Of a stretch of DNA of 64,000 nt, positions 1 to 53,000 are shown piece after piece. The notes under the pieces are model-generated. The model had not been told where the DNA came from, searched no databases, and was given only the letters and a program-made list of their open reading frames with translations. The translations under genes and the position numbers were made by a program. Position 1 is the first letter of the stretch, and the number at the start of each line of letters is the position of its first letter. The stretch comes from Amoebophrya sp. A120 (taxonomy: Eukaryota; Protista; Dinoflagellata). The DNA is taken from contig CAJINV010000007.1 of NCBI GenBank assembly GCA_905178155.1, forward strand, positions 3,143,151 to 3,207,150, given 5' to 3'.

Positions 1-3000
1 CCGCGGACGAGGACAGCGAGGGGAGTTTGCCGCTCCGCGACGTGTTGCGCATGCTGGAAGCGGTGTTCTGCAAGTCCGGCCCGTTGACGCAGTGGGACAT
101 CCGGGTTTTGCTGGCCCAGATGGAGTCGGAGCTGCGGTCCGACGGCATCATCCGGTCCGCAAAGCTGGTCACGAAGATTGTGCCGCCGCTCCGGCGCGTG
201 TACAACGAGTCGGTTTCGTTGAAACAAAAACAGATCGCAGCGGCGGCGGCGGCGGCACACCAGCAGCAGCAGCAGGTTGTAGACCACACGAACAATGAAG
301 AAGTGGACCAAGTGATCATCACCGCGGATCAAGTGCAGCAGATGGTGGCGTTGCTGCAAGGCCACGAGCTGACCCTGTTGCACGAGCTGATTCAGAAGAA
401 GTGCGAACCTCTGGCGGACTCCGCGCACCCGGAGTTGCTGCAACGACACCGGTTGAAATTCGTCTTGGACCAGCTGAACACCCGGATCTCGGAGCCGGAG
501 AAGTCTTTACTGCTGCAAATCATGCCCATGCGGGTGTTGTTCCGGTCCCCGGAGGAGGACAGCCCGGTCCCCGCGGACAAGAAGAAAAACAACAAGATTT
601 CCTTCGACATGTATCGTAAGGAAAAGTCCCCCCTCCCCATATCGGAAACGTACCCGTCTGAAAATTTGTGATGCGCATTTGGGACCTCAAATCCTGTCTG
701 TCTTGCCAGAAGGCAAGTCCAGAAAGCGCTCCGCATCCTGCAGGCGGTTTGTGATGCTGTTGGGCTTAGAGCATACGCGTTTGCCATGCTAGGCGCCTAC
801 GCCAACACCTCCCGACTGAGGCTTGGCATATGCCTGCAGTCGTCTCTAGCAAGACAGATCTGATTTGTGTACGCAAATCCAGCATCAGAAACTTCGTTTT
901 GATATGGGGAGGGGGGATTTTTCCTTTTGATAACATGTCACCGAAGTCCAAGGCGGACAACACGTTTCTGAACGGGTCCCTGGACAGTCCGATGGCGACC
1001 GCGAAGCCGAACAAGAAGCGGCCGGTCACCTTCATCAACTTCACGGAGTTCCACGACAATCTGGCCTACCTGCGCGCCGCGCGGACCTTCTACTGGCCGG
1101 ACAACCTGGCGCAGGTCCGCCACTCCCTGATCGAGATCGTGCGGTCGTTCAAAGCGCGGATTCCGATCTGGACCTACCGCGCGCAGGTGCTGGGGCCGTT
1201 GATGCAGCAGAAGCTGGTGTGGCTGTCCGCCGCGGAGCTGTTCGTGATCGGCTGCATGACCCCGGTCACCAAGGATGCCGGGCTGGAGTGCGGCTTCACG
1301 GACATTGAGGAGGCTATCAAATGCAAAAATGTCTGGGTCTGGAAGAGTCATGCTGTTTTTGCATGACACAGGATGTCTGTCCTGGAAGCCCTAGCATCAC
1401 AGATTTCGAGAAGCTTCCGCATTGCTTAATCGGCATTACAAATCCCCCACTTTGGTGACAGGAAATGGACACCTTTTGCTGCCTATGCATGAGAGATTTG
1501 TCTGTGTTGTGAAATGCGCATCACAAGCTCACATCCTTCCAGACCCAGACATTTTTACAATCCATAGAGGCGTTCGACATCCTCTTCTGTCTCGTGCAGC
1601 AGTGGCACGACAAGTTATCAAATGTAAAAATGTCTGGGTCTGGAAACTTGTGATGCTGGGTGGCGTCTCATGATGAGGCTACAAATGCTGGCTCAGCATG
1701 ACAAGTTTCTGAGCTCCTAGGTGTTGCCTATTCTGCATGACAAAGTGCGCTTCTGCATCACAGAAAAACGGAGCTCTTGGGTAACGTGCATGACAGATTT
1801 AAAAGTCATGCCAGACAAGCATGACAAACATGAATTCTTCCAGACCCAGACATTTTTACAGTTGATACAAGGATGCGGTCTACCAAAAGGGGGTCACCAT
1901 GGCGCTGGAGCTGGAAGCGGAGCGGAAGCGGAAGGAAATGGAGGAACTGCAGCAGTTTTCCGGTGCGAGCCCAAAAGCGAGTAACGAGGAGGCGAACCGC
2001 AAGGAGAAGTTTGTGCCGCTGGAATTGCGCGACAACCTGGAAGTGGTGGAACGAGCCCTGATGGCGCAGTTTTCGGTAGCGGATTCGGAACGGAAGGGCA
2101 TGATGCGACAGGACGAGGTGGCGGCGTTGCTGTTGGGTGATTGGGACGTGTACATCGAAGATGGCGGGTTGCTAGACAGTGAGAAGGCGGGGTATAATTT
2201 GCTTGTAGTTGTGAACAACCAGTTTTTTTAGCTTTATTTTTCCTCGGTTTCGGTTTTTGTGCACGATCGATGAAGAAAATCGAATCCGAGCTAGGTTTCT
2301 CATCGTGCCAACACTGTTTATGAGTAAATCGCAACCCCTACGTACCCCAGGTTGCTTGCCATGTGCGAGCCGGTGTTGGACGAAGATGGGAAGCAAACTT
2401 CCTACCTGCGCTACGACGAGCCGGTGAAGACCTTTTTGCCGATCTTGTTCGACATCCGGCAGAACCAGGGCTTTCGGGAGGTCCTCCAGCTGGAATCTCC
2501 CTTGGAGGAGTTGATGACGGAGGAGATCATGCAGCTGCGGCAACTCGGCCCGCTTCCGTATGAGAGTGCACAACTCCACCTCGTCCCCCTCATTTGTCAT
2601 GCAAAACCCCAAATCCAACTGTACTGCTGCCCTGTCGCACTCGCTGCATGACAGATTCTGGAAGGCCAAACAGTATGAATTTGCCATGCACAGGCTCCAC
2701 GTGTGCTGGTGATGGTGTTTGTATTGCTGCTCATGCTTTTCAAATGAGGGGGAGGGGAAGCTGTGCACTTTCATATGCCGACCCGAAAATCCACGACGGG
2801 GCGGCGCAGCCGGTTCTCGGTCGGCGCCGGCGGCGGACCGGGCCGGGTGTCCGGTGTGAGCGCTGCGGGCCGACCCTCGGCCGGGGGTCCGGGCCAGAAA
2901 AAGGGGGTGCGGAGAGTCCAGGAAATCACGATATCAAATGCAAAAATGTCTGGGTCTGGAAGATTCTGAGACTTGTCATGCATGTTTTGCATGACCCAGG

Positions 3001-3270
3001 ATGTCTGTAATGCACGACCTAGCATCACAGATTTTTAGAGGGCTTCCTGATGCCTACTTCGCATGACAAACGCACTCCTGACGCACTACTTAGCATCACA
3101 AGTTCCAACCGTCCAGACCCAGACATTTTTACAGTTGATACACGACCCGGGGCGGCAAACTGATCCCGAAGGTGATCGACATCGCGGCGTTGGTGCACGA
3201 AAGCCGGGCGGACAGGAGAAGGAGGATCGGGTCGGACGCCTGGTCGCAGTTGATTCAGAAAATCAAGTGA
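1..3270 (+). CDS. Multi-exon hypothetical protein, 5'-truncated by the window; weak resemblance to an ET/NET-like helical segment near 315-480
   Basis: Exons about <1-611, 938-1314, 1572-1615, 1873-2191, 2351-2558, 2781-2931, 3146-3270. Removing five TIR elements (each plus one TSD) and a GT-AG intron (2192-2350) joins the listed ORFs into one frame (SFDM|SPKS, IEEA|FDIL, LGPLP|TRKS, QEIT|TRGG), ending KIK-TGA. Confidence 0.8.
612..932. mobile_element. Introner/MITE-like element, family B (321 bp), forming a non-canonical intron
   Basis: TIR tatcgtaaggaaaagtcccccctccccatatc / gatatggggaggggggatttttccttttgata. Perfect 5-bp direct repeat ACATG at 607-611 and 933-937. Excision restores the frame. 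Confidence 0.93.
1315..1566. mobile_element. Introner/MITE-like element, family A (252 bp)
   Basis: TIR tatcaaatgcaaaaatgtctgggtctggaag / cttccagacccagacatttttacaatccata. TSD GAGGC at 1310-1314 and 1567-1571. Excision restores the frame (can be read GC-AG). Confidence 0.93.
1616..1867. mobile_element. Introner/MITE-like element, family A (252 bp)
   Basis: TIR tatcaaatgtaaaaatgtctgggtctggaa / ttccagacccagacatttttacagttgata. TSD CAAGT/CAAGG (4 of 5 match). Excision joins WHDK to the AVYQKGVTMALELE frame. Confidence 0.92.
2559..2775. mobile_element. Introner/MITE-like element, family C (217 bp)
   Basis: TIR tatgagagtgcacaac...ccccctcatttg / caaatgagggggag...tgtgcactttcata. TSD TTCCG/TGCCG (synonymous Leu difference). 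Colinear with the element at 52401-52618. Confidence 0.9.
2932..3140. mobile_element. Introner/MITE-like element, family A (209 bp)
   Basis: TIR tatcaaatgcaaaaatgtctgggtctgga / tccagacccagacatttttacagttgata. Perfect TSD CACGA at 2927-2931 and 3141-3145. Excision restores the frame. Confidence 0.93.
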
Positions 3271-4486
3271 AGATATTCATTGCGGAAAAATGGTGTATTT
3301 GCACCAAAAAAGAAGAAAGAAGATTCGCCAGAAGTTCTGTACAATAAAATAAAGATTTACATTTGTTATAGCACTTTGCTCGAGGTTGTGCTATTTGAAA
3401 ACCTATACGTAAAATTGAAAAAACGTTATTGTATCAAATTTCGCTTGCAGAGAAATGGAAATCTGTAAATCAGTTTTCCGCTCCTGCTCCACGAAGCTGT
3501 ATATCGTTGACGCATTGTATGAAACTTCTTTTAAAAAAGTATCAACTTTTGCTCGTATTACTAACTTCCAAGAATTTGTTGAGGCTGTACAAAAATATGA
3601 CACCAGCACACGACCAGCAAGATTGCACTTGCAATGTAGATACAAGTTGACATCGTTGAGAAGAATGTGTCTGCTTCGACGTCTTTGCTAGATGAAATTA
3701 AAGTTTGAGGATTTGTACCGTAGCGTTGACTCTAAGCGAGAATCAATGTCGTGCCGATTCTCGAAATTGTACCTGTCCTTGTCCTTTGCGGCTACCTATA
3801 AACAAACAACTATCTTACACACTCGAATTGCGCTCCTCTATTCAAAAATACCTTAACCTGTACAATTTACTCCAAAAGAACAAACAGACCCTTCTACGCC
3901 GGCGCACCACACCTGAACAGAATCTCTATTGCCCCAATCGAAAATAAGATTGCAGAACGAAAATTCAAAGAATTTAATAGCCATTTGATCTCCGTGTCCG
4001 TGTTTGTCGACAAATCGTGTCAACAGCGTGTTTCTGGGAATTCTGAAGACAGCTCGAAATAACAACCGTGCTGCTATGGATCAAAAGAAGGCCATCCCAA
4101 AAATTTGCAAAAGGCACAGCTTTCTGGATCAAAAACGCAGCTGAATTTTGATTTTTTTTTTGTGCATCACTACAAGCAACCGAATTATTTGATGTTACAA
4201 GGACCCATTTGCTGGATCAATTTTACGCTCTCGCCTGAATTAGACCCAAACAACCCACAGGAGTGAAACAACATTTGAAGCGCCAAGAACAAGTCATGTT
4301 TTACGGAGCGGTTTTATTCAGTTCCAGCATGTCCACCTGGACGTTTTTCAGCCCTCCTGTGTAGAAGCCGCGCTCGTTTTACTTATTTTTCGAGCAGTGG
4401 CGTTACTTGTATTTCACTACCCTCTCCCCCTCGTTCTTTCCCAGGACGACGACTTTCAGCGACTTTTCCCCATCCGAAAAAAAATC

Positions 4487-6719
4487 ATGACTGAACTGGA
4501 CGACGAGCTGGCTGCGATCCGGGCGAAGCGGCAAAAGGCCCAGGAGACCCAGCAGACCGCCATGTTCACCATTTTGCAGAAGAAGCGCGAGATGGAGGGC
4601 GAGGACCCCGCGGTGTTGGAGGCCAACGCCAAAAGGTTCAAGTCAGCGACGGGCTACGGGCAAAACCCGCCCGAGCCGGTAAAAAAGCACCCGACCGCCT
4701 GGCCCGGCGGGGTGCACCCGGCCATCGCGAGCGTACCGCTGGCCGCCGGCCTGCCGCATTTGACGGAGGAGGAGCGGGCGCAGGGCAAGAAGCTCCTATC
4801 AACTGTAAAAATGTCTGGGTCTGGAAGAGTGCCAGACGTGTCATGCAGGTTTTCCATGACCGATGAGGTCTGGTGTGTAGGACAGAGCATGACAGATTCT
4901 GCGAGAGTTCTATCATGCCTATCCTGCATGAGAAACTGCCTCTCGACTAGGTCAGAAGTTGACAGCTTTTGGCAATCATGCAACACAGATCTTTACATAA
5001 TTCAGATTTAGCATGACAAGTTGCATTCTTCCAGACCCAGACATTTTTGCATTTGATAGCTCCCCACCGACGACGACATGATCCACAGCCAGTACGACGC
5101 GCTGGCCAGGTACGGCGAGAAGGCGGTCACCGGGAACGCGATCGTGCCCGTGGTGGACGGGAACGGGACCGCGGTGGAGGAGTGGCTTACCACCGGGTTT
5201 CAGGCGCAACTGCGCAAGATGGAATCCGCGACCAATTTCAAGCACGGCATGAAGATTATCGAGAAGATCTGGATCCACCGGCACCGGCACATCCCCTACA
5301 AGGAACAGATCCAGCTCTACTCCATCCTGTTCACCAAACCCCTGACGCAGGACCTCATCGTTCACATCGACAAGGCGGGCGGCGACCAGGAGAAAAACGA
5401 CCGGTTTCGGGTCATTCCGAAGCGACTCGTGCAAGACCGGGCACGGCCCACCAGCGTGATGAAGATAAGAAACCGACCACCGGACAAGTTTATCCCCAAT
5501 GTGCCGGAGTGGATCGACGTCATGCACCTCATGAAGCCCATTGAGATCGGGTTGACGCAGAATTTGAAAGAAAAAACCACGGCCGACTTGATCAAAGCAC
5601 TCTACGCGGTGGTGAAGGTACTGATAGGGTTGATGATTTTATTGCGTTTTTGCATCGTGTCATGCGAAGAGGCCAGCACAGGCTGGGCTAGTATGTTGCG
5701 AATTCATTCGGTCCTCGCATGCATGATTTAGATAAGTAAAAGTTCTTCCTTGCACAAATTGAATTTCAGGTCCACCTTCTGGATGTGCCGTTTCAAAATC
5801 GAGCGACCTTCGAGCCAACCAGCGGCGAGAAGAACTGCATGCTGAAGCTCCAAGAGATGCTGAAAAGCAAAACCGCGGCAAATGGCGACGAGCTGAAAAC
5901 CCTGAGTGCCAAGGTGATCTGCATGTTGCTGTACAGCAACAGTCTGATCGCGAACCCGAATTTCATCTCAAATGTCGGCGCGTTGCAGAAATTGGCTCTG
6001 GACAAGGGACTGATAAGGTATATAGTACCTCAATGTTACTGCTTGCCTTTCGATCTTCCTATGTTGATCCGTTGTGTTTTTCGTCCCATTGCACATAATT
6101 GCAATTGCTCGTTGCAGAAGCAGCTTCATGTTGTCCGTTTGTTATTTATTTCATACAGTGTTCATTATTTCAATCTGAAACCAACAGAACCTTGTACCAC
6201 GACGTCGTCCGCGGGCAGCAGATTGCAGACATGGAATCTGCGCAGGTGTGCGAGCTGGCCTATGCCGTGGCGAAGTTTAATCAGCTGTACACACAAACGC
6301 TGGCCAGCAAGAACGATCTGTCCGCCGCCGCCGGGCTGGGGATTGCGCACCGGGAACCGGTGGAGGAGCAGGTGTTCAACAAGATCTCCGAGAAGATCCA
6401 GATGAGCAAGGACTCCATCAGTTTGAAGCATTTGGCGGACATTGTGTCGGTGTACGCCCTGTTCGGGCTGAAGGACGAGCAGTTGTTCCACTCCCTCGCG
6501 CCCATTTTCCTGACGGAAAAGGCCAAAGGAAAGCTGAACGACTTCGACTTCCAGCAAACGCTGAAGGCCTACATCAAGTTCAACCTGCCGCTCCGGGAGG
6601 AGGCGCAGGGCTTCCGGAACATCGCGGTCATCGGCAAGGGCGACTTTACCCGGCCCAGCGACAAACCAAAAAAGGAAAAGTTCGCCTACCACAGGCCGGA
6701 GCCGCTGCAGGACAGATGA
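4487..6719 (+). CDS. Hypothetical protein with C-terminal helical repeats (HPR/RAP-associated-like), possibly organellar RNA-binding
   Basis: Exons 4487-4796, 5064-5617, 5770-6017, 6188-6719 (one introner plus two GT-AG introns) give a continuous frame (KKL|PTDDD, VVK|VHLL, LIR|TLYH). The segment LKHLADIVSVYALFGLKDEQLFHSLA resembles helical repeats. Function is tentative. Confidence 0.7.
4797..5058. mobile_element. Introner/MITE-like element, family A (262 bp)
   Basis: TIR tatcaactgtaaaaatgtctgggtctggaaga / tcttccagacccagacatttttgcatttgata. Perfect TSD GCTCC. Same length as, and colinear with, 51206-51467. Confidence 0.94.
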
Positions 6720-7440
6720 GGCCGCGTTTGGTGGTGGTCGGCAGGCAAGCAGTTCTTGGCGCGGAGTGGCTTATTTGGTTTTCGACGATGAAGACGAAGA
6801 CCCGGTGCCATTTCGTTCCTGTGTAGATAGTCCTCTGCTCCGCACATCAGTATCAGACGACTGCAGTTCTGTATTACGGAACAGTGAATGTTGTTGGAAA
6901 AACTACGCGATTTATCAGAAGCAATGCGTCGCCAGCTGTGATTTCTACAGCAGTTTTCACTGAGGAGTTCTTGCTCTGTGTTCCTACTCGTGCTTGATGT
7001 TTACCCGATATCCTGGATCTCTGCGGAGTATTTGCAGCTTTTTCAGTACACAATGCTATATTGTTCATCTGCTGTTCAAATTCACTGCGGTAAGGGACCT
7101 CCTGCGGCGCTGCGCGCGAGCCCAGGACGCGGCTGCCCCGGCATCTGGTGGTAACGCGAACGCCCGCCGTCGCCGGGGCGACGAGGCGCATCTCGGGCGG
7201 ACCGGCGGGGCGTGTCCTTTTTCAGTTCGCAGCCTGACAGCATACGCCGTCTGCTTTCGTTAGCGGTCAAGCGGGATGTTCGTTTGTACTTACCAATCTG
7301 GAAGGCAAGGTTTTTTAGCGCTCTCTGAAGAGTACACTTGAAATACTCGGCGTCTCTACTACACTAAGCCGCAGTCCGCGCAGCTCTTACTGCGACTGAA
7401 ACAGTTCAAGCACATTTCGTCTACGAGAAGTATCAACTAA

Positions 7441-27805: not shown

Positions 27806-29663
27806 ATGGGAATCCTGTCACAAATTCCACCGTTGCAGGACCATCTGGAAGATGCGTTTTCTGCGCTTACGATACAGCAGCAGCCGAAGCAATCCGTGGC
27901 CGCAGCGCGAAGAGTTGGGTTATACAACGGGAATGTAACCACGAGCTTTGTTGTTGAGAACCACTTACAACGCAATTCGGCCGCCACGCATAATAATCCT
28001 TCATCCTTCTACGCAGCAACGTTTCATCCTCCTGCCGCACCAAGTGACACAGGAGGAGATGGAACAACCCTGCAGTTTCCCTTCTCATCCTCCTCCTCCC
28101 ACCAGCGACAGTTCCTCAACTTCCCCACCCACGGCTCCTTTCACACGCGGCGCACGTTCTTCACGCCGGAAGACGCGCTGCGAGAGGGCGAAAGCTGCCC
28201 CACCTGTGCGTGCGAGGGGTGCCAGACGGCCTTGGGGAGCAACGTGGGGTCGCAGGCGATTGAGTGCCCGAACGTGCCCCACCACAGCAAGGATCCGGTG
28301 GTGTCGAAAGCGTTATGGTACAGCCGCCTGGTGTTCATCTTTTTTGCGGGAATATCCTTGGGCGGCTACCTCGCCTTCTGGATTCGGGGACGGCAGGTCA
28401 GGAAGCGGGCGCAGTTGATGGACGACGACGGGGAAATCAAGCGGGTGGACATGTGGGTTGACGACGACGACGAGTCGTCGGACGAGGAGGGCATGAGCGC
28501 GGGCGATTTCTTCATGAATCTGTTCGGCGCCCCGGTGAAGCTGGCGAACGCGATGATCGAGCAGGCCACCGGGGTCAGGTTGTTGCCGGATTCCGTTTAA
28601 GCATTGCAAATATGTCTGTGCTCTTTGGAAGCATGCAAGGCTTGTCATGTTCGGTTAGCATGACGCTCAAGTGTCGTGTCTCTGCACACCACCCAAACGA
28701 ACTACTTTTCTGTCATGCAGGATCTACTTACGCAGTTTGTTGCCAGTCAGAGCAACACTCAATGTCAACACCTAGCACCTCGAAGACTTCTTGTCATGCT
28801 TCGCTGTTAATTGAGGTATCAATCCTCGTGATTCTCGTATCAGCAGGACAAGTTTGTTCCGGACCAAGGCGTATTTGCAATCTCCATACCGTCACGGAGA
28901 AGGTGCGGTTTTCGTTCCGCGATCGGGATATCCTTGAGCGGACCGACTTGACCGATATGGAGAAGGCGTTTTTGATAATGAAAGGCGACTACGAGGAGCA
29001 CATGGAGCTCAGCGAGCGGGAAAAAGCCATTTTGAAAGACAGGTATTTATAATAGGCCGCATATAGAAATTTCATTTGCTCAAAACCGTCCGCAATGCAA
29101 AAAGAAAAACTTAACAAGAAAACGTACTGTTCGAATAAAAATCATCAATCAGGTCCTTGACGGACATGGAGAAGGCGTTTCAGATGACCCGCGAGATGGA
29201 GGAGGTCAACCTCCCGGGCCACATGTCGGACATGCAGAAGGCCTTCCGCGAGCTGCAGGTGGACATGGGACTGCGCCCGGCGGACGACGGGGGCGTGATG
29301 GGGGCGCTGCTCGGCGAGGACGAACTGAGCAAGAAGCTGAAGGGCAAATCCGACATGGAGAAGGCGCTGGCGCTCCAGCTGAACGCGATGGGGGTGGAGG
29401 AGGAAGACCTGACCAGTGACATGCAGAAGGCCTTCAACCACGTTGCTGCCAAGTACGGGCTGGCGCCGGGCACGACCGAGGATGACCACGCGTTCGATGA
29501 GGACGGGAACCGGAAGAAAACGAAGAAGGAGGGCGGCGTGTTCGGTATGTTCGAGGAGGTTTTTGGGAAGTCCGACATGGAGCAGGCCTACGAGGAGGTC
29601 GCGGCCAAGGTGGACAAGAAGAAGAAAAAGAAGAAGGGGCTGTTTGGGGGCCTGTTCGGGTGA
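27806..29663 (+). CDS. Single-pass membrane protein with a Cys cluster and repeated (S/T)DM(E/Q)KA(F/L) motifs
   Basis: Exons about 27806-28597, 28894-29042, 29153-29663. Junctions PDSV|TEKV (introner) and KDR|SLTDM (GT-AG). TM segment LVFIFFAGISLGGYLAFWI. The start is uncertain. Confidence 0.72.
28598..28888. mobile_element. Degenerate introner element (291 bp, family E, distantly A-like)
   Basis: Imperfect TIR taagcattgcaaatatgtct / aggcgtatttgcaatctccata. TSD CCGTT/CCGTC (synonymous Val). Internal tgtcatgc motifs. Excision removes the TAA stop and restores the frame. Confidence 0.78.
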
Positions 29664-36116: not shown

Positions 36117-38738
36117 ATGTCGTCGCAGCCGCCAACCCCACCGCCCGCGGCCGCGACTCCTCCTGTGCGGGCGGAGTCTCCGCAGCTGGAAGATTTCATT
36201 TCCGACCGGGAAGTGAACAAGACCATCGGGAAAAACAACATTTTCCGCACGCTGTGGTGCAACATTTTCCTCTATCGCAAGAAAAAACTGTTTCACTGTC
36301 AACTTGTGATGCATAGAACGGAATGCAAATGTGTTTGTCTTGCTACACATGCAAGACATTGGATTTTTAGCTGTGTTTTCCCTTGAGAAGCGCGCATGCC
36401 CAGTTTTCTTTGTCATGTGTAACAAACTTGTGATGCAGATCTTGCAAAATCATCACAGTGAAGCAGTTTTTTCGTGGGATATCCTCGTGATCGGGTCCAC
36501 GATCACGTTTGGACCGGTGTTTGACAAGTACATCCTTCAACTTTCCGACAAGAATTGGGTGGTCGGCGTCGTGGAGTCCGCCTCGGGGATGACCTCGTTA
36601 CTGGTGTTCGTGCCGGTGGCCTACCTGGTCGACCACGTGTACGGCCCCCAGGACCGCGCGCGCCTGGTTCGCAACAGCGCGAACTTACTCTCCGTCGGCG
36701 TGGTGGTGTTAGTGTTTGCCATTCTGTTTGATTCCTTCTACCTGCTCTTCCCGGCGTTGTTTCTGAACGGCGTGTTCTACGAACTCTTTTCCTCCGCCAC
36801 CGAGGCGCTGTTTGCGGACTCGGCGGGTGTCACCGGGGACCGGGCGGGCTGGTACGTAAAGAAGCAGGTCTACATCACCATCGCCGCCGGCGTGGGCCCG
36901 CTGATCACCTTGCTCTTGGCATTTGCGGATAACAAAAATCATCTTCTTGCCCACGGAGGTTTGTCTTATGACAATCCGATGAATTATGCGGACGAGTCGT
37001 GGCCTACTGACCACAGGTGGGACATCAGCACAGCCGGGGGAAACGTTCATCATTTCGATGATGGTTCCACACCAATATCGGGCCCGTTTGCGGTAGCTCC
37101 AACCGGTAGTTCATCGTCGTGGCACATGTTCAATCCGTTATTTTCCAGATATCAGCTTCCAGGACCAGCTTTACGAATGAGTGCAGCTGCGGCCTCATCC
37201 GGCGGTACAGAAGAGATAAGGTCACCACGTCCAGCAGGTGCGATTATAGCGGGAAAAATAGAAACTGCTTCTGTTTCAGCCTCTTCCCGGTCTTTACTAG
37301 AACGCAACAGCGATACTAGCACAACGCTTGCTGGCGCCGGTGAGATGCTTCTGGGAAGCGGTGTTCTTGGTGTCCAGCGAGCGATAGGAGACGCTGCTGG
37401 CGCGGGGGCATTGAAGACTCTTCCATCGACACCATCTGAGGAGTCGAGCACTACAACGATGGTCGCTGGTAATCCTTCACCTTCGTTCTTCAGCGATAAC
37501 TTCTCCTCCAGCACTTGGACCTTATCGTGGATGCACTTCATTCTGCTCTCCGGCGTCGTTCTGTTCGCCCCGTTGTACTGCTTTCTCTACGGGTATCGGG
37601 ACCTGATCCAGGAGCAGGATGTCGAGGGGAACCAGAAGAAAACCGAGGACGAAGTGTTTACGACGAACCTGACCCGCGGCGAGAAGTGGATTCCGTACCT
37701 GTGCGGCCTGAGCGACTTTGTCGTGTCGATCGGGGCCGGAATGACGGTGAAGTTCTTCAACCTCTTCTTTATTCAGGACTACCACTTTCAGCCGTGGCAG
37801 ATATCCCTGCTGCAGACCGCCTACCCACTGACCATCGCGGTTTTCACGATACTACTCGGCAAAATCGCGAAGTACTGCGGCCGGGCGCAGACGAGCGCAT
37901 GTACTTCTCACTTTTACTCGGAGATCGTTAATACGTGCTGTTGTTTCGTAAAGGGGTGATGTTTCGTAGGCTTTGGAGTTTGAAATTTTTCCTGTACGGA
38001 CTGAACTGATAACAGCGGAGCACATTATGTTAAACAAAAAGATAAAAATGAAAATCCACTTCCCAGTCGCCTTCTCCCTGAACGCGCTGTGCATGATCCT
38101 CCTGGCTCAGCTGCAGGACGTGCGCGTTTTGCTGGCAATCTTCCTGATTCGGGGCGGCATGGCAAACGGCGTCGCGCCGCTCGACCGGTCCATTCTGATG
38201 GACTACACGCCGTCGAGTCAGAGGGGAAAGTGGAACGCCGTGGAGAGCTTCACGAGCATCACCTGGAGCGGGTCTGCCTTTTTGGGAGGCTACATTGCCG
38301 ACGTGCAGGACTATCGGTAAAGTGCTACTTCTATGCTTTCCTTTTTACAGGACTTTTTCGCACAAGTTCTGGCTGTGTGTTGTTCGTTTTCACAAATAGA
38401 CCAGAATGCTATCGCATGCTATCAAGAATGACTTCGTTTTACCAAAACCCAGGCAAACGTTCCGCTACACCGGCTTCATCTATCTGGTCGGGACCCTGAT
38501 CTATTCCCCACTTCTGTTTCTCGTTCCAAGGAAGGCAAAGAAAGATTCTAGTGGCAGCGGCACTGCAGCAAGTACCGAAGCAGGTAGTGGAGCTGCAGGC
38601 ACGCTACTCCCATCGGAGCCTGCGGAGCTGGAGAACCCTGTTGATAGTACAGCTCCAACATCACAGTCTTCTACTTCTCGCGGGGAGCCTCTGTTGGTCG
38701 TCAGGGGGCGCGCACTGTCGCGAGACTCGGATCATTAA
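36117..38738 (+). CDS. Major facilitator superfamily transporter
   Basis: Exons 36117-36272, 36487-37900, 38067-38316, 38453-38738. Many TM helices and MFS-like motifs (AYLVD..G, ILMDYTPSSQRGKWNA, GGYIAD). One introner plus two GT-AG introns. Confidence 0.88.
36273..36481. mobile_element. Introner/MITE-like element, family D (209 bp)
   Basis: TIR tatcgcaagaaaaaactgtttcactgt / acagtgaagcagttttttcgtgggata. Perfect TSD TCCTC. Excision gives NIFL|VIGSTITFG. Confidence 0.92.
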
Positions 38739-39331: not shown

Positions 39332-42300
39332 ATGTTGTCTCTCTTCATTCGCCCTAGCCGACTTGTTGGGAAGCACCAGCGATTTCTTGTCAGTGTCGCA
39401 CGCACGAAGAGGTCAGTGGAACAGGATGACGCCAGCAGAATCGGGGGCTCGTGCCACCAAGAAGAGTGTGCCATGGGAGGTCATCCACCGGAACAAGCAG
39501 CGCCATCGCTACTCGCACCGGATGAAACATCTTCAGCCGGCGCAGTCGTCAAAGTTGGGCGAGGAGATGCGACGACCCCAGCTACGGCATTCGCACACCT
39601 GGAGCCGCTGCGCAGAGAGCGTGAGAGTCAGACTGCGGATCCCGACCTGCCGACACCCCTGACGGAGTTCCAGATAAAGGCGCAGAAAGATGGAACCTAT
39701 CCGGGCTCCTTCGAGAACCAGCCGGAAGCCCCGCACGAGGTGGTCTTGCAGTTCCACGAGAGCGGGCCCCAGTGGGTCCCTCGGAGTCAGGTGTATCCGG
39801 AATTTTTTTCCGGGAGTGGGGACAGAATAAACGGTTGCGGAGACGCCAAAGAACTCACATCTTCTGATGTGTGCTCCGCAAGATTAGCAGCGAGTGGGGA
39901 TGAACCGGAGCAACAGAAAGGGATCCAAGTGTCAGCAGCTGAAACAAATGCAGAGGCAGGAAAAGTGGCTTTGCTCGCCGATAGAAGACAGGGTTCTGCA
40001 CCAGATGAGTTGTTATCCAGCACTCGCCCAACTACAACTTTACCCAGTGCGGCCGCGACTGCTTCCTCGTTGCAGAAGCCTGTACTTCATCCCATAATTT
40101 CTGATTACCCGAAGAACCGAGGGCAACTGCAGCCCAGGCTTTCCGAGTACGCGACGACGCAGCACTTTTACCGCAACGAGCTCCGGTCCTGGTACTGGCA
40201 GCGGAAGCAGGGCACGAAGTACCAGCTGTGGTGCCCCCCGGGGGTGGTGTTTGCGAAATTGTGGAAGTATCACTATGATCCCGGGCCGCAGCAGGTCCCG
40301 CCCCTGGAAAAGTGGTGGTTTCAAGATTCCGCGCGGGAAGGACAACAGGACGAGGATCACGATGGGGACGAAGCCCCCGCTTCTCGCTGCTGGGACTTCG
40401 CCGAAGACGCGGACATGGAGTATCAGTTTCACCGGAGACCAGCGACTGGGCTTGGAGTAGTTGTTTCCACTGCCGAGCAGGGACAACAGGAAAGTTGTTC
40501 TTCATCTTCTGATATACCTGCTTTTGACTATAGCGAAGATGGGGAAGGCAATAATCCTGACGCGGGTGTTGACAATGCTGAAGATAGTGGATACGCGGCG
40601 AGTAACGCACTCGGAACGGACGAGGAAGCTAGTTCACGAGAACGATCGAGCAAAATTGAAATGCCTGAGCAGCATCGAGAGCGGCCGCAGCACACACAGG
40701 AGGCGCAAGATGTTGAACTGCGGGACAACTATCGAAAACCCCTTCCTGAGCAGAATGTGGTCCCCACAGCACCTGCCTCCTCGTCGCGCTTTCATTATTC
40801 TAGATCGCATGAAAATGCAAATGGAAATGCCAAGGAGAAAACCTCTATCTTTCAGCGAGCGGAAGTTGCTTTCGACAGAGGTGGTCATGCATTGATGAAC
40901 GAAAAAATTATATCGAGCGGCACCAAAACCAATATCCCGGTAAACTTGGTGATTGGCGGCGGCACCTGGGCTGTGGCCACTGCTAAAAACACGCCACTGG
41001 AAAATTTCGTGCAGTTTGAGTCGAACGACGCAAAATTGTTTGTCTCCGTGTATATCAAAAGGAAAAATGCCCCCTCCCCATATCAAAACGAAAATCTGTG
41101 ATGCAGATTTGTGGCCACAAATCAGCTTTGTGATGCTAGAATGCAAAAGATGCGGACTGTAGTGCTGTCTAGCGTGGAAAAGCCTTGCAGCTCCAGGATG
41201 ACAGGAGGCAGCTGGAAGTGGGAAACAGCATGACAGACCACCTGCAATTTAGGCCGCAGCTTCGTCTCTTGGCCTTCTAGCAATACAAGTCGATTTGTGT
41301 ACTCAAATACAGCATCACAAATTCGCGCATCTTCCGTTTTCGATATGGGGAGGGGGGATTTTTCACTCTGATAGTGTGCCGTGCCTTTCAAGCCTTCGAG
41401 GGCAACCGGTCGGGCTTGCTCAGTCTGTTGAGTGGTGCTTCTTCTGCCGAAGATATGCTGGACCAGCAGGAGCACCAATTTTTCGAAAACCTTCGGTTCG
41501 TCTTCACCTGGCCTTGGCTTGCGCACCGTTTTCTCCCAAAGCAAATAGTGAAAAAAGCTCATCTGCACTTCGTGGACGAATTCGAGCTCGAGGACTGTCT
41601 GCCAGCACTGTTTCACGTGTTGAAACCGAATGGCACGATCAGCTTCACGTTTGAGAACAAAGAAAGCGCGGCGGCCGCTCTGCGGGAGGTGCTGCTGAAG
41701 AATTCCACGGTGAGAAATTTGATGCAGGGCGCAGCGGGCGCGGCGTATCCCGATCATGGGGCGACACGAACTCAAGGCACGGACAAACACGGAAGCTGCA
41801 AAACCAGCTCTTTAAACGTGAAGTTCGAGTGTCTCACGGTGTCGCAAAAATGCCGAAAGGACCAGAAATTAGCCGAGAGTTTGTTGAAAACGAAAGATGT
41901 GTCCAAAGCCGACGACGAATTTCTTGTCGCGCTCTTCTGCGAACGTGTTTTCGATCCGTTTTTGCAGGCTCCGGCCCACCGGGAGAAGAAGACCGGGGAC
42001 CGGGTGCGGTTTAACGCGCGAGTCGAGGACGTCGTGCAAGACGAAGAGTTCATTGCGACGACGCCCTGCAGAAGGGGGAAACCCATGAGCGGATACTGGC
42101 GCAGGAAGGAGGGTCATGCTGGTCCGGCGGTCGTGATGTCAGACGAGCTCGAGAACGAGGGAATAAACGGGCAACATGTTGTCGAACAAAGTGCAGTAGA
42201 ACAAGATGGTTCTTTGGTAAAGACGACAGAAGCTTCATCTGCGGGTGGCGGTGCTGTAGCGAGTGCAGCAGACAAAAAAGTAATGACCGCAAATGAACAG

Positions 42301-42498: not shown

Positions 42499-43150
42499 CG
42501 GTAGATTGATACATAGTGTATGTACCTTCCCGACGAGCCCACACGACATGAAGATCGCAGACCAAACGCTAGGTCTCTACCGCGATGATGCCCAGCTTCG
42601 CGGTTCAGACTATCTAATGTGTTGTAAGAAAGACTGTTGTATGTTGGCATCATTTTACTGCAAAATCGCTTTTATCAAAATGCAACTTCTACTACTGCGA
42701 CCTCCTCTGGTCTGCAGACACGTAAGTCGTATAAAATATAAGAGTGAAGACGAAGAGCTTGAATGAGGGTCGTTGAGAGATTTGCACGTGGGGCCTGATT
42801 CATGTATCTGCGTTCACTTCTCGCACTTTCTCGTATCGTGTCTCGTCGCAAAACTCAAAACGTACTCAAGCATTTTCGGGGGGAATCGAAATCAATACTG
42901 TCGAAATTTTACTAGCGCAACGATGATATTGTAGTCGAGGGTCACGTTGAGTGGTTGAAAACTACGCGTCTGTCATCGTGAGTTGTAATGGGTCCCACAT
43001 TCAAGTTTCCATTAGTCGGCCGCTTTTTTTATCCTCGAATGTACCACCAGAAATCGCGTAAAGGATGCGAAATTAAAAAAGGAGAATCCCAATAAAAGTG
43101 AGTCGTCGTGTTTGGCATTTCGACATCTCTGCAGAAACAAGAAATACACA

Positions 43151-45829
43151 ATGCCAGACGAGTCTAAGTCTGCATTTGTCCTGCCGCTCTCCGAGCTGCA
43201 GGCGATCCAGCACCGCATTCTCCCGGCAGAGCAGGTAGAGGATTTGGGTAGGAAAAGGGCTCTGAAACTGCACGAGAACAGCAAAAAGCGCGCGGGCACG
43301 TGGACCAACACACTAGAAGGGTCAAGAAAAGCAAACATAGCCGCAAGACAGCTTAGGCTAGATGCGGAGGAGGCAGGTACGGAGTACACTTGTTGTGGAT
43401 CATGATAAGAATGATAAACCACCTTCGATCATAGGTCTTCTTCCTCTACAATGTGAAAGACGCCTGTTTCTGAAACAGGCACCAGCAATAGAAGTTCAAT
43501 GCTATAATCGAAAACCAACATTAAAACAGAGCGTCAGAAGCTGGATGAGCAGGAGGCCGCCATCCAATTAGAGAACCGTAGAAGAATAATCGCGAGGGCA
43601 AACAGATTGCTGTACGACGAGTCCGATAGAATGAAGTCCTTCCACTCAAAAATGCAGTACTCGGACTGTCTAGCGGAGCGAGAAGCTCAGGTGCAGTTGA
43701 AGGATGAGCTGAGCAGGTAATCTGATGACTTTCTGGTGCACGCAGTACAAATTAATAAGGACAAACAGTAACTGAATTGGATTTCGTGTAAACGTCCTTA
43801 CCTCGGCAGGCCAGTACAAGTGTGACAGAATTTGCATCTGAAACACAATCTCAAGCTTGTGTTGAATTTCTTTGAGCCGAACAACCACTTACATGATTCA
43901 CAGGTTAGAGCAGATTCGGGAGGAGCGATTTCTGGATATCGAGAAGCACAACTACCGAAAAATGCTGGAGCGTGAACTGCGCGAGAAGATGGAATATGAA
44001 GACAAACTCGGCAAAGCAACGGTGGTCCAAAAGCAGCAACTGTTGGAGGCAAAAACAAAGCGACTCGCGTTTATCGAGGAGGACATCTTGGAGGGTACCA
44101 CTTATGATGGCACAATCATCTTCTTCGCACTTGGCGAATGCATGAAATTGAAAAAAGGAAAAGAGCAGGGGAAGACGTTTGACCTCAGAACGACGACAGA
44201 TGGCGCTGCATGGTGACAGAATAAAAGTTTTTTCGTCTGAGAAAAAGTGGCCAAACGAAAATTTCTTCAGGTGAGCTCCTCCGCAAGAAAGCCGCAGAGG
44301 ACGCGGAGCAGGAGCGTAAGAACATTTTGAAGAGACGAGCCGAGGCCACTTTGGCACTAGTGGAGACGCAGAAGGCAAACGCGTACCTGAAATCTTGCCG
44401 GGAAGAGGACGACAAGAGGAAAGATAGGGAACGTATTTTTGATTTTTCGATACTGCTGTAGCTGTGCCCGCATGCCAATTTCAATTATCATAGCTTGCCG
44501 CACATGTTGAGGGCTTCCTGCATTTCATCAAACGCCGCATATGATTTTATTTTACAAAACCTCAGAGCGCAAAATCAACGAATACGCTGCGGACAAAGAG
44601 CGGCAGATGCAGCTCCGCAAGGCCCGGCTGAAAGAAATCCACGACAACAAGATGGAGATTCAGAACCGGCTGATCGAGAGGCAAGCTGCGCAGTTGAAAG
44701 CCGCAGCGAATGCCGAGGACGCGAGAATCGAGGGCGAAGTACTGCAGAAGCAGCTCGCGGACGAGAAAAAGAGGCTAGCGAAGGAAGCCAGATTACAGCA
44801 AATGGCAGATGACGTAAAGATGTTTTTTGATTGAAAGATACTCGCAGTGTAGAAGCGTAAGCGATAGGAAATGCAGCTTCACTGTGTAAATCTATCACGA
44901 AATTAGCAGATGAACCTAAGCTCACTTAGATGAATTACTTTTAAAATCATTCTGATTTTTGCGTATTTCAGGTAGACAAGAGTCGGCAGCAGCAGATTAA
45001 GCGCAAGGTGCTGCAGAGACAGACGGAAAAGAAAGAGGAGGTTGAGATGACACAGTTCTGGTCGCAGTGGTGCAAGCACTTAGGTATATGTTTTACGACA
45101 ACTAGCTGCCTCGGTGCTTGTATACGAACTTGCCGTGCATCAGACCGCATCATTTTCATTATGGAATGAAATCGCAGGCCCCGTCTTGTGGTTTTTGTCA
45201 TGCGTCTTTCTGCAAACACCTTCAACCGCCATGTTTACATAAAAAACGACATTTTTTGACACTGCTTCTATTTAACAGAAAACGAAGAGCGGCAAGAGGA
45301 GGGGCTGAAGTTCGAGGCCGCGAAGAAGCTGCAGGCGGAGCACCGAAAACAAATGGCCCAGAACAAAACCAAACGGAACCACGACCGGGAAACGGAGCTG
45401 TTGGTGGTGGAGAAGGCGCAGCAAGCCATCGAGATGGATTCGCTATCGAATGAAAAGATGTCTGGGTCTGGAAGGTTGCAACTTGTGATGCTGTGTGTAA
45501 ATTCTAAAAAGATTTGTATTGCATGAGCAGCAGCAGGAGGAGGAGTCCAGTTTGTGTTACGCGGGGAGGGCATTTCTCATGCGGAATCGGCATCAGGAAG
45601 CCCTCTAAAAATCTTTGATGCTAGGTGATGCATTACAGGCATTCTGGGCCACGCAAAATATGCATGACAAACGTGGCAATCTTCCAGACCTAGACATATT
45701 TGCAGCTGATATTCGCTAGAGTACTACAAGTACGCGGAAGCAATGATCCGCGAATACGCGGAGGATGGCAAGAACGTCATCCCATTGATCAAGGAACTCA
45801 AGGAGTACCGGAAACGGGAGGGGATTTAG
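43151..45829 (+). CDS. CFAP210: Cilia/flagella-associated coiled-coil protein, CFAP210/CCDC173-like
   Basis: Exons 43151-43376, 43530-43716, 43904-44094, 44271-44432, 44566-44813, 44972-45083, 45279-45443, 45717-45829. Motifs WTNTLEGSRK, ANRLLYDESDRMKSFHSK..SDCLAEREAQ and C-terminal GKNVIPLIKEL. Long E/K/R coiled coil. Confidence 0.78.
45444..45711. mobile_element. Introner/MITE-like element, family A (268 bp), inverted relative to 2932-3140
   Basis: TIR tatcgaatgaaaagatgtctgggtctggaag / cttccagacctagacatatttgcagctgata. Perfect TSD TTCGC. Excision gives EMDS|LEYYKY. Confidence 0.92.
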
Positions 45830-47435: not shown

Positions 47436-49153
47436 ATGGCGTCCTCAAGCAGCGGCCCGTCGAGCGGGCCGAACCCGAAGAAGACCACACTGAAGCAAAA
47501 CATGAATCCGAAGGAGATCATCATCACCACTAAACTCGCCAAATCCGCACGAAACGCCATGTCGAAAAAGGTGCTGCAGCTCGGGTACTGCTCCCTCGGC
47601 ACCGAAACCATGGGCGTGGTGGTCAAGCATATGCGCTTACACCAAGTGCAGGAGGTGGACCTGAGGTGTAACGCGATAGGAGCAGATGGTAGGGAATATT
47701 GTTGGGCGAGCTCTTTGTTTTGGACAAAGGACAAGCAGTACAAATTCCCCTATTGATTGTAAAGATAATTGCACCCAGATCTATTACCGGTAAAGCGTTC
47801 ACTATTTCGTGGGTGCTGGAAAAAACAAGTATTCGAAAAATTGGAATTGCTCAAGATTATTTATTCCCATCTCCACACAGCTCTCGTGATTCTTGCGCAC
47901 GCGCTGCACCACGATCGGCTTGGGATACGAAAGCTGGGATTGAAACTGAATCACGTCGGCCAGGACAAAAACTTGCGCGGAACGGAGGCATTAGCGGACG
48001 CGTTGTCAGAGAACACAAAGCTGCAATACCTGGACTTGAGGTGATCATAGTGATTTTTTAGATTTGAGTTGTTTCCTCGTTGCAGAGTTTTCCCGCATAA
48101 AAAACGCTTCATCAAACATAAAGCGTTCCTAGGTTGTACGGCGGGTACTAACTACTGCAGGTATAACCGCCTCGCAGACGAGCACATGGGGAGCGTGAAG
48201 CGAATTTTGAGCACGAATCGGCACTTGCTCACCCTTTTGATCTCGTTCAACAACGAGATCACCGACAAGGGCGCGCGGATGATCCTCGACGCGCTGAAGA
48301 ACAACTTTACGGTCCAGCACGTGGAGATGGCCTACTGCAAGTTGTCCGACCCGATGCTGGAAAAGGTGGACGGTCGAGTGCAGAAAAACCGTGACTCGGT
48401 CGTGACCGTCGATCCCCACACGGGAGAGATGATCGTGAAAGCCAAAGACGTCTCCTCCGCCGCGGAACGGGCGAAAATCGTGGAGGACCCGTGCGTGAAG
48501 AAGGTCCGCATGCTCGGGTTTCCCTTGCAGCACATCTGCATCTATCTGGAGATGCTGCAGCTGGGAACCATGCAGGCGAAAATGGCAAAGTTAGAAGGGG
48601 AAGACAAGGAAAAAGTCCTGAATCACGCCGGCATGGAGAGGGAAGCGGGGTATAGAGATGAAGAGGTCATGTTGGGACAACGAGGACAAGGTGTTGCATA
48701 TGGACAAAATACAGGACGAAATGATAATAGCAGTCTCAGTGATCTACATTTGAGTTTCCCTTCCGCTTTCCGCATTTTGTTCGAATAACCTGAAAAACTC
48801 CAAGGTTCCTGAAAGAGATCCTGCAACTTGAGGAGCAACTCGTGCAATTCACGGTCGACAAGGAGGACACGGGCGGCGAACTGCAGAAATATCTCGAGTC
48901 GACTAACGAACTGTCGGCGGAGATTTCGGAACTCGAGCACAAGCGGAATTTCGTGCAACGGAAGATGACGGACAAGATGAAGTCCATGGACACGGTGATC
49001 AGGTCCGCCCGCACCGCCTGCGCCGGGCTGCAAGAGCAAAACTACATGTCCCAAGTGGAACTCGAAAACGAGAAGAAAGAGAACGCCAGGCTGCGGTTGT
49101 ACTTGCAACGCTGCAAGAAGGACATCGAAGACCAATTCCCGGACGCCACGTGA
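47436..49153 (+). CDS. RNI-like leucine-rich repeat protein with a C-terminal coiled coil
   Basis: Exons about 47436-47688, 47881-48040, 48161-48649 (possible extra intron 48504-48560), 48805-49153. Repeats VDLRCNAIGADA, LGLKLNHVG, LQYLDLRYNRLAD and LISFNNEITDKGA. Confidence 0.85.
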
Positions 49154-50022
49154 GGGCGGGAGGGACTGGCCTTCTGGGTTCTTGCACAACTACTTCAAGC
49201 TCCACATTGGTTAATATTTTGGTGTTGCTTTGTCATTCGCAGCACAGATCATTTGAACACACATGCTCAGCAGCAGCTTCTTTGTGGCTGGGAACAAACT
49301 GAACTGTCGAAACGACGGAAGCAACATAGAAAAACCAAAGCATTCCGCAAGAATGTTGTTGGACCAAGTGAAGCCATTTGGAACCACTATGAAGTGGGTA
49401 AAAACTGCTCTCTTCTGTCGCTGTCGTTGTTTCCACTTTGTTTCCATGCACCACGACATTTGTGAGCGAGCTGAGGGACGACGTGGTTGCACCAGCAGAG
49501 TCTCTTGTCTATTCTTCAATAATTGCTTTCGTTTGTTTTTCTCTTCGTTGCGAGTGAGATAACGGTTTTTCTTTCTACCATACAAGATCTGCTTCGTCGA
49601 CGTATTGAGCGCAAGTTTGATCTACCTCCGATCGTCGTATTCTTTTCGTGAAGTGCGCGTGTTCGCCTGGTGGTCTGTAGACAACCGAAAGAACTTGTCG
49701 CATTCGTCTTTCCCAGTCGCCGGCCATTCGAATAAAGTCTTCGAGAAATTATACATAGAGGATGCTGGCGGGTTTTCGAAGTAGTAGAACAAGAAAGTTT
49801 GCTTTTGGTTCTAGTAAGCTTCACAACATAACATCAATTACTTAATTTTTCTGATGCGACCTGCTGCCTCTGGTCCTGCGTCCTTGTTAACCCGCAAGGA
49901 AAAAATGACAGGGCCGCCAGCCCACCGCTTTATTACTTCAGTGCTCGCCCGCTGACGTGGCTGAGTCCTATAACTTCCAGTTAACTGAAACTCAGGAAGA
50001 AGACAACCTGTGAATTATCGCC

Positions 50023-53000
50023 ATGGAATCGCCGATCCTCCCCCTCGAGGGGAGTCCCTCGCGGACGATTTTACCGACGCCCGACCGCCTCCACGCTTAC
50101 TCTCTCATTACCTACGAGCCGCCCGAGGGGAATGGCCAGCGGGTCCGGGCGCAGTTGCTAATTGACGAAATTTTCCCTACGATAACCGATTTACCGCAAA
50201 TAAAGAATTCCGGAGCTACCGCTGGTGGCTCCTCGTCCTCTACTTCCAGTAGCGCTTTTTTGCTCTCCTCACCGAAACCCGGAAATAGGCAAACAGGGTT
50301 GTTCTTTGCCGCAGCTTCTGCGGGGGCCATTGTATCAAAAACAACCGCAGTTGTCGACCAAAATTCCCCTCCGCCGTCTCCGCCGGGCCTCGTCGTTGCA
50401 ACCCGAGCCCGGACCGTGCAGGATCTGGTCGCCAAACGCGCAAGACAGCGGTTTTGCCGGGAGAAGTGGCAGCAGTGGCGATTTGCGTACTCACAGTCGC
50501 GGTACAGCAAGGCGAAGCAGAAGCTGGCGACCTCCCTCTACAACGTCCGCGTACTGAAAAAGGCGATTTTGAGCTGGAAATTCGCCGCGTGCGAGCTCCC
50601 GACGACGCAGCTCCTCGCCGTGGAAGTTTCCTATTGCGAGAAATCGATTGCCCTGCTTCAACTCTGCCTCGACGAGTGGCTGAAGCAAGCGATCGCGGAA
50701 AAATTTCTGAAGCGGCCGGAGCTCTCCTTCGTGAACCTGTTCCAGTCGCGGAAGAATGTCCTTCTCTACTGGACGGAGTACGTGAAAAAAAAGAAACACC
50801 TGGAAAGGGCGGAGAAACTGACAAATATCCGGGTAAACCAGTCCCGCGTGCGCATCTGGTGGCTGGAATTCGGCTACCACCGGACCCTGCGGGTGAACTT
50901 GTTTTTGCTGCAAAAACTGACGCTTTCGCTCTGGCGGAAGGAAACGGTCCGGGACTCCAAGATCGTGAAGTCGTTTCAAGAACGGTGGTCTTACTTCAAC
51001 TACTTCAGCAACTTCTTGGAGTTCCTCTGGAACGGAATCCTGGATAAAAGAAACCGGGCGCGCATCCACTTCACGAAACGACAGAAGCGGGAGATTGTGA
51101 AGGCGTGGCAAACCTCGGCGTGGATCGCGAGACAGACGCGGAGGTTCACGAAGTTAGCCTCGGTGTTTTCCTCCTCGACCGTGATGCGCAACGCTTTCAA
51201 CCGGTTATCAAATGTAAAAATGTCTGGGTCTGAAAGGTTGCAAGACTTGTCATGCAGGTTGTCCATGATGCGCGAGGTCTGTCATACACGACCTAGCATG
51301 ACAGATTCTGTGCGACCTCTATCATGCCTATCCTGCATGAGAAATTGCCTCTCGATTAGGTCAAAAGTGGAAAGCTTTTGGCACTCATGCAACACAGATT
51401 TTTGCATGATTCGGATTTAGCATGAGAAGTTGCAATCTTCCAGACCCAGACATTTTTGCAATGCATACCGGTGGATCCAGTACCACGAGCAGTTCCAGTT
51501 CTTCGCGCAGCAGCGGCAGAAGGCGGCAGCGCATCACAACCTTGTCGTGTTCAAAACGGTGGGGAAGAAATGCTTGAAGGAGTGGGGCAAGCTGCTGAAA
51601 TTCGTGCAATCTGCAAGGGACAACGCGTTTCTCTTAGGCGAGAAGTCCAACGAGGACAGACTACAATTCACCTTTGAAAACTGGGTGCGGGCAGTGGAGG
51701 AGCTGAAGCACGAGCGCGAGTTGCTGAAGATCCTGCGGCGGGTGGAAACGCGGTTTTTCGTTTTACCGACGTTGGAGGCGTGGCGGAAGTTCACCCGGGA
51801 GGAACGACTCGGCAAGCACTTCGCACTACTCGCATCCGAATTCTCCGAGGGCACAACGTTGCGGCTAAACTTTACCACTTGGAGGACGAACGTGGTCGTG
51901 GAGAAGAGAGTGCGGGTGCACCGGGAGATGTGGCAGAACTTCGCGATACGGAGGGGGTACGGGAAGCGGGCGTTTTACACGTGGGAAGAAAACTTGAGAG
52001 CCCAGAAGAAAGTCCTGCAATTCTGTATTGTGGTTATTCTACTAGTCGTTTTCTTTCTGTTTTTCATCTTGAAACCGCATGAATTCCAATTCGATGTCCA
52101 ACTGTACTACTTACAAAGAAGTTCACATTACAACAGCCCGCCTGATCGCCTCCGGCAACCGCGAGACGTTGTTGAAGCTGCACCTGCTCGAGTGGCGAAA
52201 GTACGCAGAGGACCAGATTCAAGAGCGGCACCAGGAAGAAGTCGCGAAGGAGTACCAGAAGCGGTTTGTCGTGCAGAAGTACTTCGAGATCTTCGTGGAG
52301 ACGATCAAAAACGACAAGAAATTGAAGCACCTCTGCTCCGGCCTGATCGCGCAGTTCGGCGCCGGTCTGCAGCAGAAATTCTTCGACGCCTGGCGCAAGG
52401 TATGGGAATGCACAACCCCCCCTCCCCCTCATTTGCCATGCAAAATCCCAAATCCAATGGCGGCCTTGTGGCACTGTTTGCACGACAAATTTTCGAAGCC
52501 CAAACAGTACTCTACACGAGAAGCATGAATTTGTCATGCATAGGTTCCACGTGTGCGGATGTTTGTGTTGCTGTTCATGCCATGCAAATGAGGGGGAGGG
52601 GGGTTGTGCACTCTCATGCAAGGGGGTGAAGCTGAAGAAGCAGGACATGGAGAACGTCGGGAAGGGGGAGATGCTGGTGCAGAAACTGTTCTGTTGGAAA
52701 CTTTTCCGGCTTTGGAAAGAGTCGTTTTTGCTGCGTTTAAAACTGAAAGCGAAATTCTTCGAGTTCCACGAAAACCACCACCGGTACTTTGTGCTGCTGC
52801 ACACGATCAGGAAGTGGGAGAAGAACCGGGAACTGTCGGAAAACCACCGGAAGAAGTACACGAAAGCGGGCACCTTCCGGGTGGAGTGGTGGGGCTTCCG
52901 CCCCTGGAGACTGGCGGTGGAGCAGGCGAAGCGGTTGGCGTTTGGCGCGAAGTTCCTGGCAGAGAACAACGCGGGCTACTGTTTGCTGCAAGCGTTCAAG

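Follow-up and report, generated by a model that had tools for sequence, protein, structure and literature searches.

Introner elements in the Amoebophrya sp. A120 window

How can introns be removed accurately from a transcript when their ends allow no standard pair of splice-site dinucleotides? This question is raised by a 64,000-nt stretch of DNA from Amoebophrya sp. A120 (contig CAJINV010000007.1; hereafter the window, in whose coordinates all element positions are given), where 12 introner elements with terminal inverted repeats (TIRs), each bordered by a target site duplication (TSD), interrupt coding sequences. The phenomenon is already published, and ours is a rediscovery of the A120 introner elements, since Farhat et al. 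2021 (PMC7789003), in its accessible parts, describes this type of intron, puts forward the hairpin idea and notes the lack of U1 for the same strain. According to these parts, more than 60% of A120 introns are non-canonical, and many of them are introner elements having inverted repeats that start with TAT, direct repeats of 3–5 nt and hairpins; 83 of 89 spliceosomal proteins and the U2, U4, U5 and U6 RNAs were found in A120, U1 was not, no transposase is reported, and the legend of Fig. 3 leaves the position of the intron border unknown. The accessible text of Gozashti et al. 2025 (PMC12130899) assigns A120 introners to several transposon classes. Our elements match the published ones in the strain label on an identical protein, in the succession of TAT, seven looser bases and an A run, in the direct repeats over the borders, in their size (~240 nt), in the hairpin and in being mixed with GT-AG introns within one gene. 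Compared with the accessible description there is no difference in kind; what is added here is that the border can be bounded to bases 2–4 of the TSD, probably 3–4.

The initial annotation of the window, made from the sequence alone, had listed 12 elements, and we located all of them at the starts and with the TSDs it gave (Table 1). A scan for inverted ends combined with duplications caught 10, and the limits of the two looser elements were set via their TSDs. The TSD is 5 bp long in 12/12 elements, perfect in eight and with one mismatch in four. Eleven elements start with TAT, the exception being 28598 (TAA), and the A run is found in the TIR of 10 of them (it is absent from 2559 and 52401). 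A strict rule requiring both TIR and TSD picked up 11 of the 12, together with one nested duplicate, element 28598 being too degenerate, and returned nothing in each of 30 shuffled windows. Related copies recur inside the window, which indicates that the elements are repeated in the genome; in a DNA-like sequencing run, depth over elements reached up to ~10,000-fold that of the flanks, a value that is not a copy number.

In all 12 cases, translation into the element meets a stop within 1–71 codons, whereas excision of the element with one TSD copy reopens the coding frame. The database protein P0001 corresponds to the joined sequence of the first gene of the window, with HDKDAV at the 1616 junction, and the Amoebophrya orthologues P0003 and P0004 align without gaps over the 1315 and 1616 junctions. 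Downstream, a protein labelled Amoebophrya sp. A120 (P0005) is matched with 100% identity by window:41380-42099; for another gene, identity to the A25 orthologue is 53%. No Pfam family was found for P0001 or P0005.

Precise removal in probable RNA

We looked for removal of the elements in contigs assembled from four sequencing runs that we guessed to be RNA (two samples of one study). Their cover reached elements 612, 1315, 1616, 2559, 2932 and 4797, the other six lying outside it. All six covered elements are skipped, none of them can be GT-AG, and each skip equals the element plus one TSD copy (element+5 nt). In each of the four runs, a single contig carries the skips of 257, 257, 222 and 214 nt at 1315, 1616, 2559 and 2932 plus the GT-AG intron at 2192–2350. 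The corresponding joints, 1309>1567, 1609>1867 (with a slide of 5), 2555>2778 (slide of 3) and 2926>3141, were each seen in 4/4 runs. At 612 (326 nt skipped, 606 joined to 933) and 4797 (267 nt, 4790 joined to 5058), the skip was seen in one of the four. Depth in these runs was 0–3.7 in unique element interiors versus 8–87 in exons. Contigs of the DNA-like run continue across exon-element borders, at a depth of 23–28, and retain the GT-AG intron. From two raw-read RNA runs of the same species label, 7 and 2 reads matched, all of them partially.

The initial annotation had named as the contrary outcome cDNA joints at canonical sites outside the TSDs, with compensating codon changes; the joints fall instead inside the TSDs. 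In-frame GT-AG or GC-AG alternatives exist near the six covered elements and were dropped, because joints within the slide of the TSD mean that such nearby sites are not used. These data support that removal of the RNA-covered elements is precise and makes no use of nearby GT-AG sites.

A hairpin between short direct repeats invites template switching by reverse transcriptase, and the anatomy of the elements would suit such an artefact; alternatively, elements might be removed from the DNA itself. The joints listed were 15 of 438, in a table dominated by the DNA-like run, which leaves room for a precise skip at the DNA level. However, each of the 12 elements holds a stop for the unspliced reading, the first gene is conserved in two other Amoebophrya, one contig per run has all the skips, exons are far deeper than element interiors, and the DNA-like contigs do contain the elements. 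We therefore regard both versions of this explanation as very unlikely.

End dinucleotides and ordinary introns

All the long frames of high third-position GC content (GC3) that we followed up are on the + strand, on which an intron of element+5 nt was moved through each TSD. Each standard pair is possible in a single element, namely GT-AG in 52401 (with a cut following TSD base 4), GC-AG in 1315 (base 3) and AT-AC in 612 (base 2), which upholds the claim of the initial annotation that nine of the 12 elements allow no standard pair. For 10/12, neither GT-AG nor GC-AG is possible, so that they lack U2-type ends, and no GA-AG pair was found on the + strand within the TSDs of the 12 elements. As each of these three pairs would require a cut position of its own, at most one of them can be used if the cut is fixed.

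A larger sample came from a second assembly, in which a scan with a 20-base TIR motif yielded at least 151 loci (L001–L151; 71 of them with shorter flanks) containing 169 inverted pairs, of which 134 have a perfect 5-bp TSD. After removal of 13 mis-delimited pairs, codon usage gave an orientation for 101 elements in predicted coding frames, out of the remaining 156. Of these 101, 11 allow a standard pair, for 14.6 expected from column shuffles, and 5 or 6, depending on the method, allow GT-AG, for 6.1 expected. TSD composition differs from that of the flanks at no position. Among 79 elements assignable to a window family, 44 have the same orientation with respect to the coding strand and 35 the opposite one. 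Since standard pairs occur at chance rate and elements are found in both orientations, the end dinucleotides do not seem to be read. The second-assembly elements have best matches of 66–97% to the 12 window elements and one locus encodes a protein 82–95% identical to an A120-labelled protein, so that the element families are common to more than one strain; the flanks of the window elements had no match among the at least 151 loci. Strain A25 also has introns of this kind, and AT5, going by its annotation, does not. The element motif was not found in viral contigs.

Ordinary introns are present as well. A crude gene finder predicted 28 or 37 GT-AG introns, depending on the penalty, with 25 common to both settings. 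The initial count of about 27 is thus roughly matched, although as a figure for the whole window, beyond the element-bearing genes to which it had been applied. Three predicted introns agree with RNA-type contigs (Table 1), and the coexistence of two intron classes, which had also been proposed, holds within a single gene. In the 25 shared, crudely predicted donors (window:2192-55034), A occupies position +3 in 19 (background 18%) and G position +5 in just 6. This weak G+5 would fit the reported lack of a recognisable U1.

The predicted terminal hairpin and the invariant ends

A terminal hairpin formed by the TIRs, as initially claimed, is predicted in 12/12 window elements. All fold better than shuffled versions (z from -2.8 to -12.4; 25 shuffles each), and the mean end-to-end pairing probability in the predicted folds is 0.68–0.94. 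An Rfam scan gave no match within the window.

The outermost TIR letters are invariant in the second assembly, with TAT at the 5' end in 101/101 elements and AT[A/G] at the 3' end in 101/101. At TIR base 4, TATC at the 5' end goes with TATG at the 3' end in 27 elements and the reverse occurs in 9 (p 0.004; one of 16 positions tested); window elements 1315 and 51206 follow the commoner pattern. The idea that removal is guided by something other than splice-site sequence holds therefore for the end dinucleotides, which are free, and not necessarily for the invariant TAT and AT[A/G], whose distance from the cut hardly varies and which could themselves be a signal. In such a case, TAT would be read as donor positions +2 to +4 and the TTGATA-like 3' end, which we take to resemble a branch site set at a constant spacing from the 3' cut, as the branch site, the hairpin being a by-product of the transposon origin. 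The invariance of both ends and the asymmetry at base 4 speak for this explanation, but recognition by a transposase predicts the same invariance and the very stable predicted stems would bury the TAT/ATA letters, so that we find it improbable.

The position of the cut within the TSD

The initial annotation had proposed to constrain the cut with the four mismatched TSDs, and these, which are as it wrote them, do bound it. At 1616 the joint slides only to 1614, so that base 5 of the left copy is removed and base 5 of the right copy kept, placing the cut at or before TSD base 4. At 2559 the joint starts at 2555; base 2 of the left copy is consequently kept and the cut lies at or after base 2. 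At 41053, P0005 reads VSVCRAF, so that base 5 of the right copy (Cys) is kept, a second-hand result as it comes from annotation. Given one common register, the cut thus follows TSD base 2, 3 or 4, as shown for two loci. Three of the four mismatches in the window affect base 5; we dropped this bias as a general rule, because mismatches in the second assembly spread over bases 1 to 5 (3, 5, 4, 2 and 4, respectively).

The effects of mismatches on codons, considered by themselves, gave no indication of which copy is exonic. Two mismatched loci of the second assembly, L040 and L149, were therefore compared with orthologues; where a mismatch changes the amino acid, we took the intronic copy to be the likelier one to have mutated. 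The mismatch of L040 is at base 3, and the Glu of its left copy recurs in a conserved block of a distant orthologue, which places the cut no earlier than after base 3. This makes base 3 or 4 the probable site, as far as such a comparison of sequences indicates. A cut after base 4 would put T at +2 and A at +3 of the element start, like the predicted GT-AG donors of the window. In Table S4 of Farhat et al. 2021 (PMC7789003), as far as accessible, all nine leading non-canonical types of A120 have T at +2. Literature searches, whose coverage excluded most subscription journals, turned up no study that establishes where the cut falls or what catalyses it in Amoebophrya.

Candidate machineries

The reading to which we would give an even chance is that these are A120-type introner elements, that the predicted terminal hairpin fixes by distance where the cut falls, and that a spliceosome which has stopped reading end dinucleotides makes it. 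A non-autonomous DNA transposon would enter an exon and duplicate 5 bp, as suggested by the anatomy observed in the window. Its inverted ends of ~30 nt are predicted to pair in the pre-mRNA in either orientation, acting as a ruler that would juxtapose the two TSD copies and have both cut in the same register, after base 2–4 and probably 3 or 4. Cuts in the same register in both copies restore the original coding sequence. Catalysis would fall to the U2/U5/U6 spliceosome, and the hairpin would choose the sites in place of a U1-type mechanism. We favour a relaxed spliceosome because the core machinery is present, U1 is already undetected and the accessible part of a review (PMC11282704) offers a precedent in Fritillaria. 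The donor-like T+2 and A+3 that a cut after base 4 would give also speak for it.

Several points weigh against this reading. The first pairs of the stem are poorly predicted at 28598, 51206 and 1315, and the evidence for removal comes from assembled contigs of runs guessed to be RNA, two samples of one study. Full freedom of both end dinucleotides together with independence of orientation is unusual for a spliceosome. TATG would be the start more similar to a textbook donor, yet it stands at the 5' end in 9 elements and at the 3' end in 27. At L149, mismatched at base 4, an A120-labelled orthologue has the Lys of the right copy, which weakly favours a cut at or before base 3 and hence after base 3, in which case the T+2/A+3 likeness to a donor vanishes; this is a single conservative Lys/Arg change, and a more distant orthologue has Cys. 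Finally, the T+2 pattern of Table S4 may be an aligner artefact in the placing of ambiguous junctions; its accessible rows include CT-AC, which is GT-AG read on the wrong strand.

A separate, non-spliceosomal machinery using the same hairpin ruler, namely a structure-specific endonuclease with an RNA ligase or another protein complex, as proposed for euglenids, is a serious possibility, even if we would stop short of calling it probable. It would account for the unconstrained end dinucleotides, the unbiased TSDs and the use of both orientations, and L040 and L149 jointly point to a cut after base 3 that would leave N4N5-stem-N1N2N3, without donor likeness. There is a precedent in Euglena, whose nonconventional introns are, according to the accessible parts of PMC12501133 and PMC11282704, placed through the length of a spacer counted from a paired motif and leave the transcript in circular form. 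However, no enzyme of this kind has turned up, no search having been aimed at one, a spliceosome is present in Amoebophrya and works on GT-AG introns with no U1 detected in the accessible account (PMC7789003), some members of the family are GT-AG compatible, and the base-3 placement comes from two single loci, one of them weak. In its most specific form, the machine would be independent of the spliceosome, signal-free and hairpin-measuring, would cut both TSD copies after base 3 and would represent a second independent origin of euglenid-type splicing; this we consider a tentative, rather doubtful proposal.

Comparison with other mobile introns

The elements have the features seen in miniature inverted-repeat transposable elements (MITEs), that is, in non-autonomous TIR DNA transposons: TIRs, a TSD of fixed length, small size and an insertion polymorphism suggested by the protein P0002. 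P0002 carries, at a position where the window has none, an element of the family in opposite orientation; this is likely an insertion polymorphism between close relatives, or else an intron retained in a transcript. The same protein, 99% identical to the region window:1100-1900, continues without a break across the 1315 and 1616 sites.

As far as the accessible parts of Nomura et al. 2025 (PMC12501133) and of the review (PMC11282704) go, euglenid nonconventional introns share with our elements non-canonical paired ends, TSD-like repeats, a probable MITE origin, presence alongside GT-AG introns and a cut at a set spacing from a paired motif. They differ in that Euglena needs N3CDG…CH'G N5-6|R, whereas the elements here have, by inspection, TAT…ATA, stems of ~30 bp and no purine rule at the junction; full-length circular excision is reported for Euglena. 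The MITE-derived introns of Fritillaria borealis, in the accessible part of the same review, likewise have TIRs, TSDs and non-canonical ends, and their removal by the spliceosome is reported; their preferred ends, AG-AC and AG-AT, were not seen here. In the introners of Aureococcus, Micromonas and Symbiodinium (Gozashti et al. 2022, PMC9860276, accessible parts), non-autonomous transposons with TSDs and TIRs also became introns that leave mRNA length unchanged, but there GY/AG sites are carried or co-opted, whereas standard pairs occur here at chance rate.

Distribution of elements and neighbouring genes

Half of the elements (6/12) lie in the first 5 kb (window:607-5063), five of them within one gene. 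The exon between 1315 and 1616 measures only 44 nt, and comparably tight spacing is seen at several loci of the second assembly. A long open reading frame at window:30930-34577 has an RNA cap guanine-N2 methyltransferase domain (PF09445) and is presumably Tgs1-like; its position beside elements is probably a matter of chance. No TIR element was found in the genes for a PIP5 kinase (PF01504) and an H+-pyrophosphatase (PF03030) at window:16356-23948.

Table 1 Introner elements, host gene and RNA-concordant GT-AG introns in the window.
Feature	Position	Position with TSDs	Strand	TSD (left/right)	Remarks
3' part of conserved gene (P0001, 842 aa)	1..3270		+		No Pfam family; five introner elements and one GT-AG intron
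Introner element	612-932	607..937	+	ACATG/ACATG	AT-AC possible
Introner element	1315-1566	1310..1571	+	GAGGC/GAGGC	GC-AG possible
Introner element	1616-1867	1611..1872	+	CAAGT/CAAGG	Mismatch at base 5
GT-AG intron	2192..2350		+		Same transcript as elements; joint in 4/4 probable RNA runs
Introner element	2559-2775	2554..2780	+	TTCCG/TGCCG	Mismatch at base 2
Introner element	2932-3140	2927..3145	+	CACGA/CACGA	No standard pair
Introner element	4797-5058	4792..5063	+	GCTCC/GCTCC	No standard pair
Predicted GT-AG intron	5618..5769		+		Gene finder; 248-nt middle exon fits RNA-type contig piece lengths
Predicted GT-AG intron	6018..6187		+		Gene finder; fits RNA-type contig piece lengths
Degenerate introner element	28598-28888	28593..28893	+	CCGTT/CCGTC	Starts TAAG; synonymous mismatch
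Introner element	36273-36481	36268..36486	+	TCCTC/TCCTC	In MFS transporter gene
Introner element	41053-41373	41048..41378	+	GTGTA/GTGTG	Mismatch at base 5
Introner element	45444-45711	45439..45716	+	TTCGC/TTCGC	Inverted relative to relatives 1315, 2932, 4797 and 51206
Introner element	51206-51467	51201..51472	+	CCGGT/CCGGT
Introner element	52401-52618	52396..52623	+	CAAGG/CAAGG	GT-AG possible, cut after base 4

Implications

The gain made here is that the register of the cut is bounded and that mismatched TSDs, combined with existing RNA data, offer a route to fixing it. The register matters in that the start of the element would be donor-like if the cut follows base 4 and signal-free if it follows base 3. 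If the machine were indeed signal-free, any TAT…ATA transposon insertion would be harmless in either orientation. More generally, the way in which introns lacking end signals are removed, in their tens of thousands, bears on the evolution of the spliceosome and on the origin of introns.

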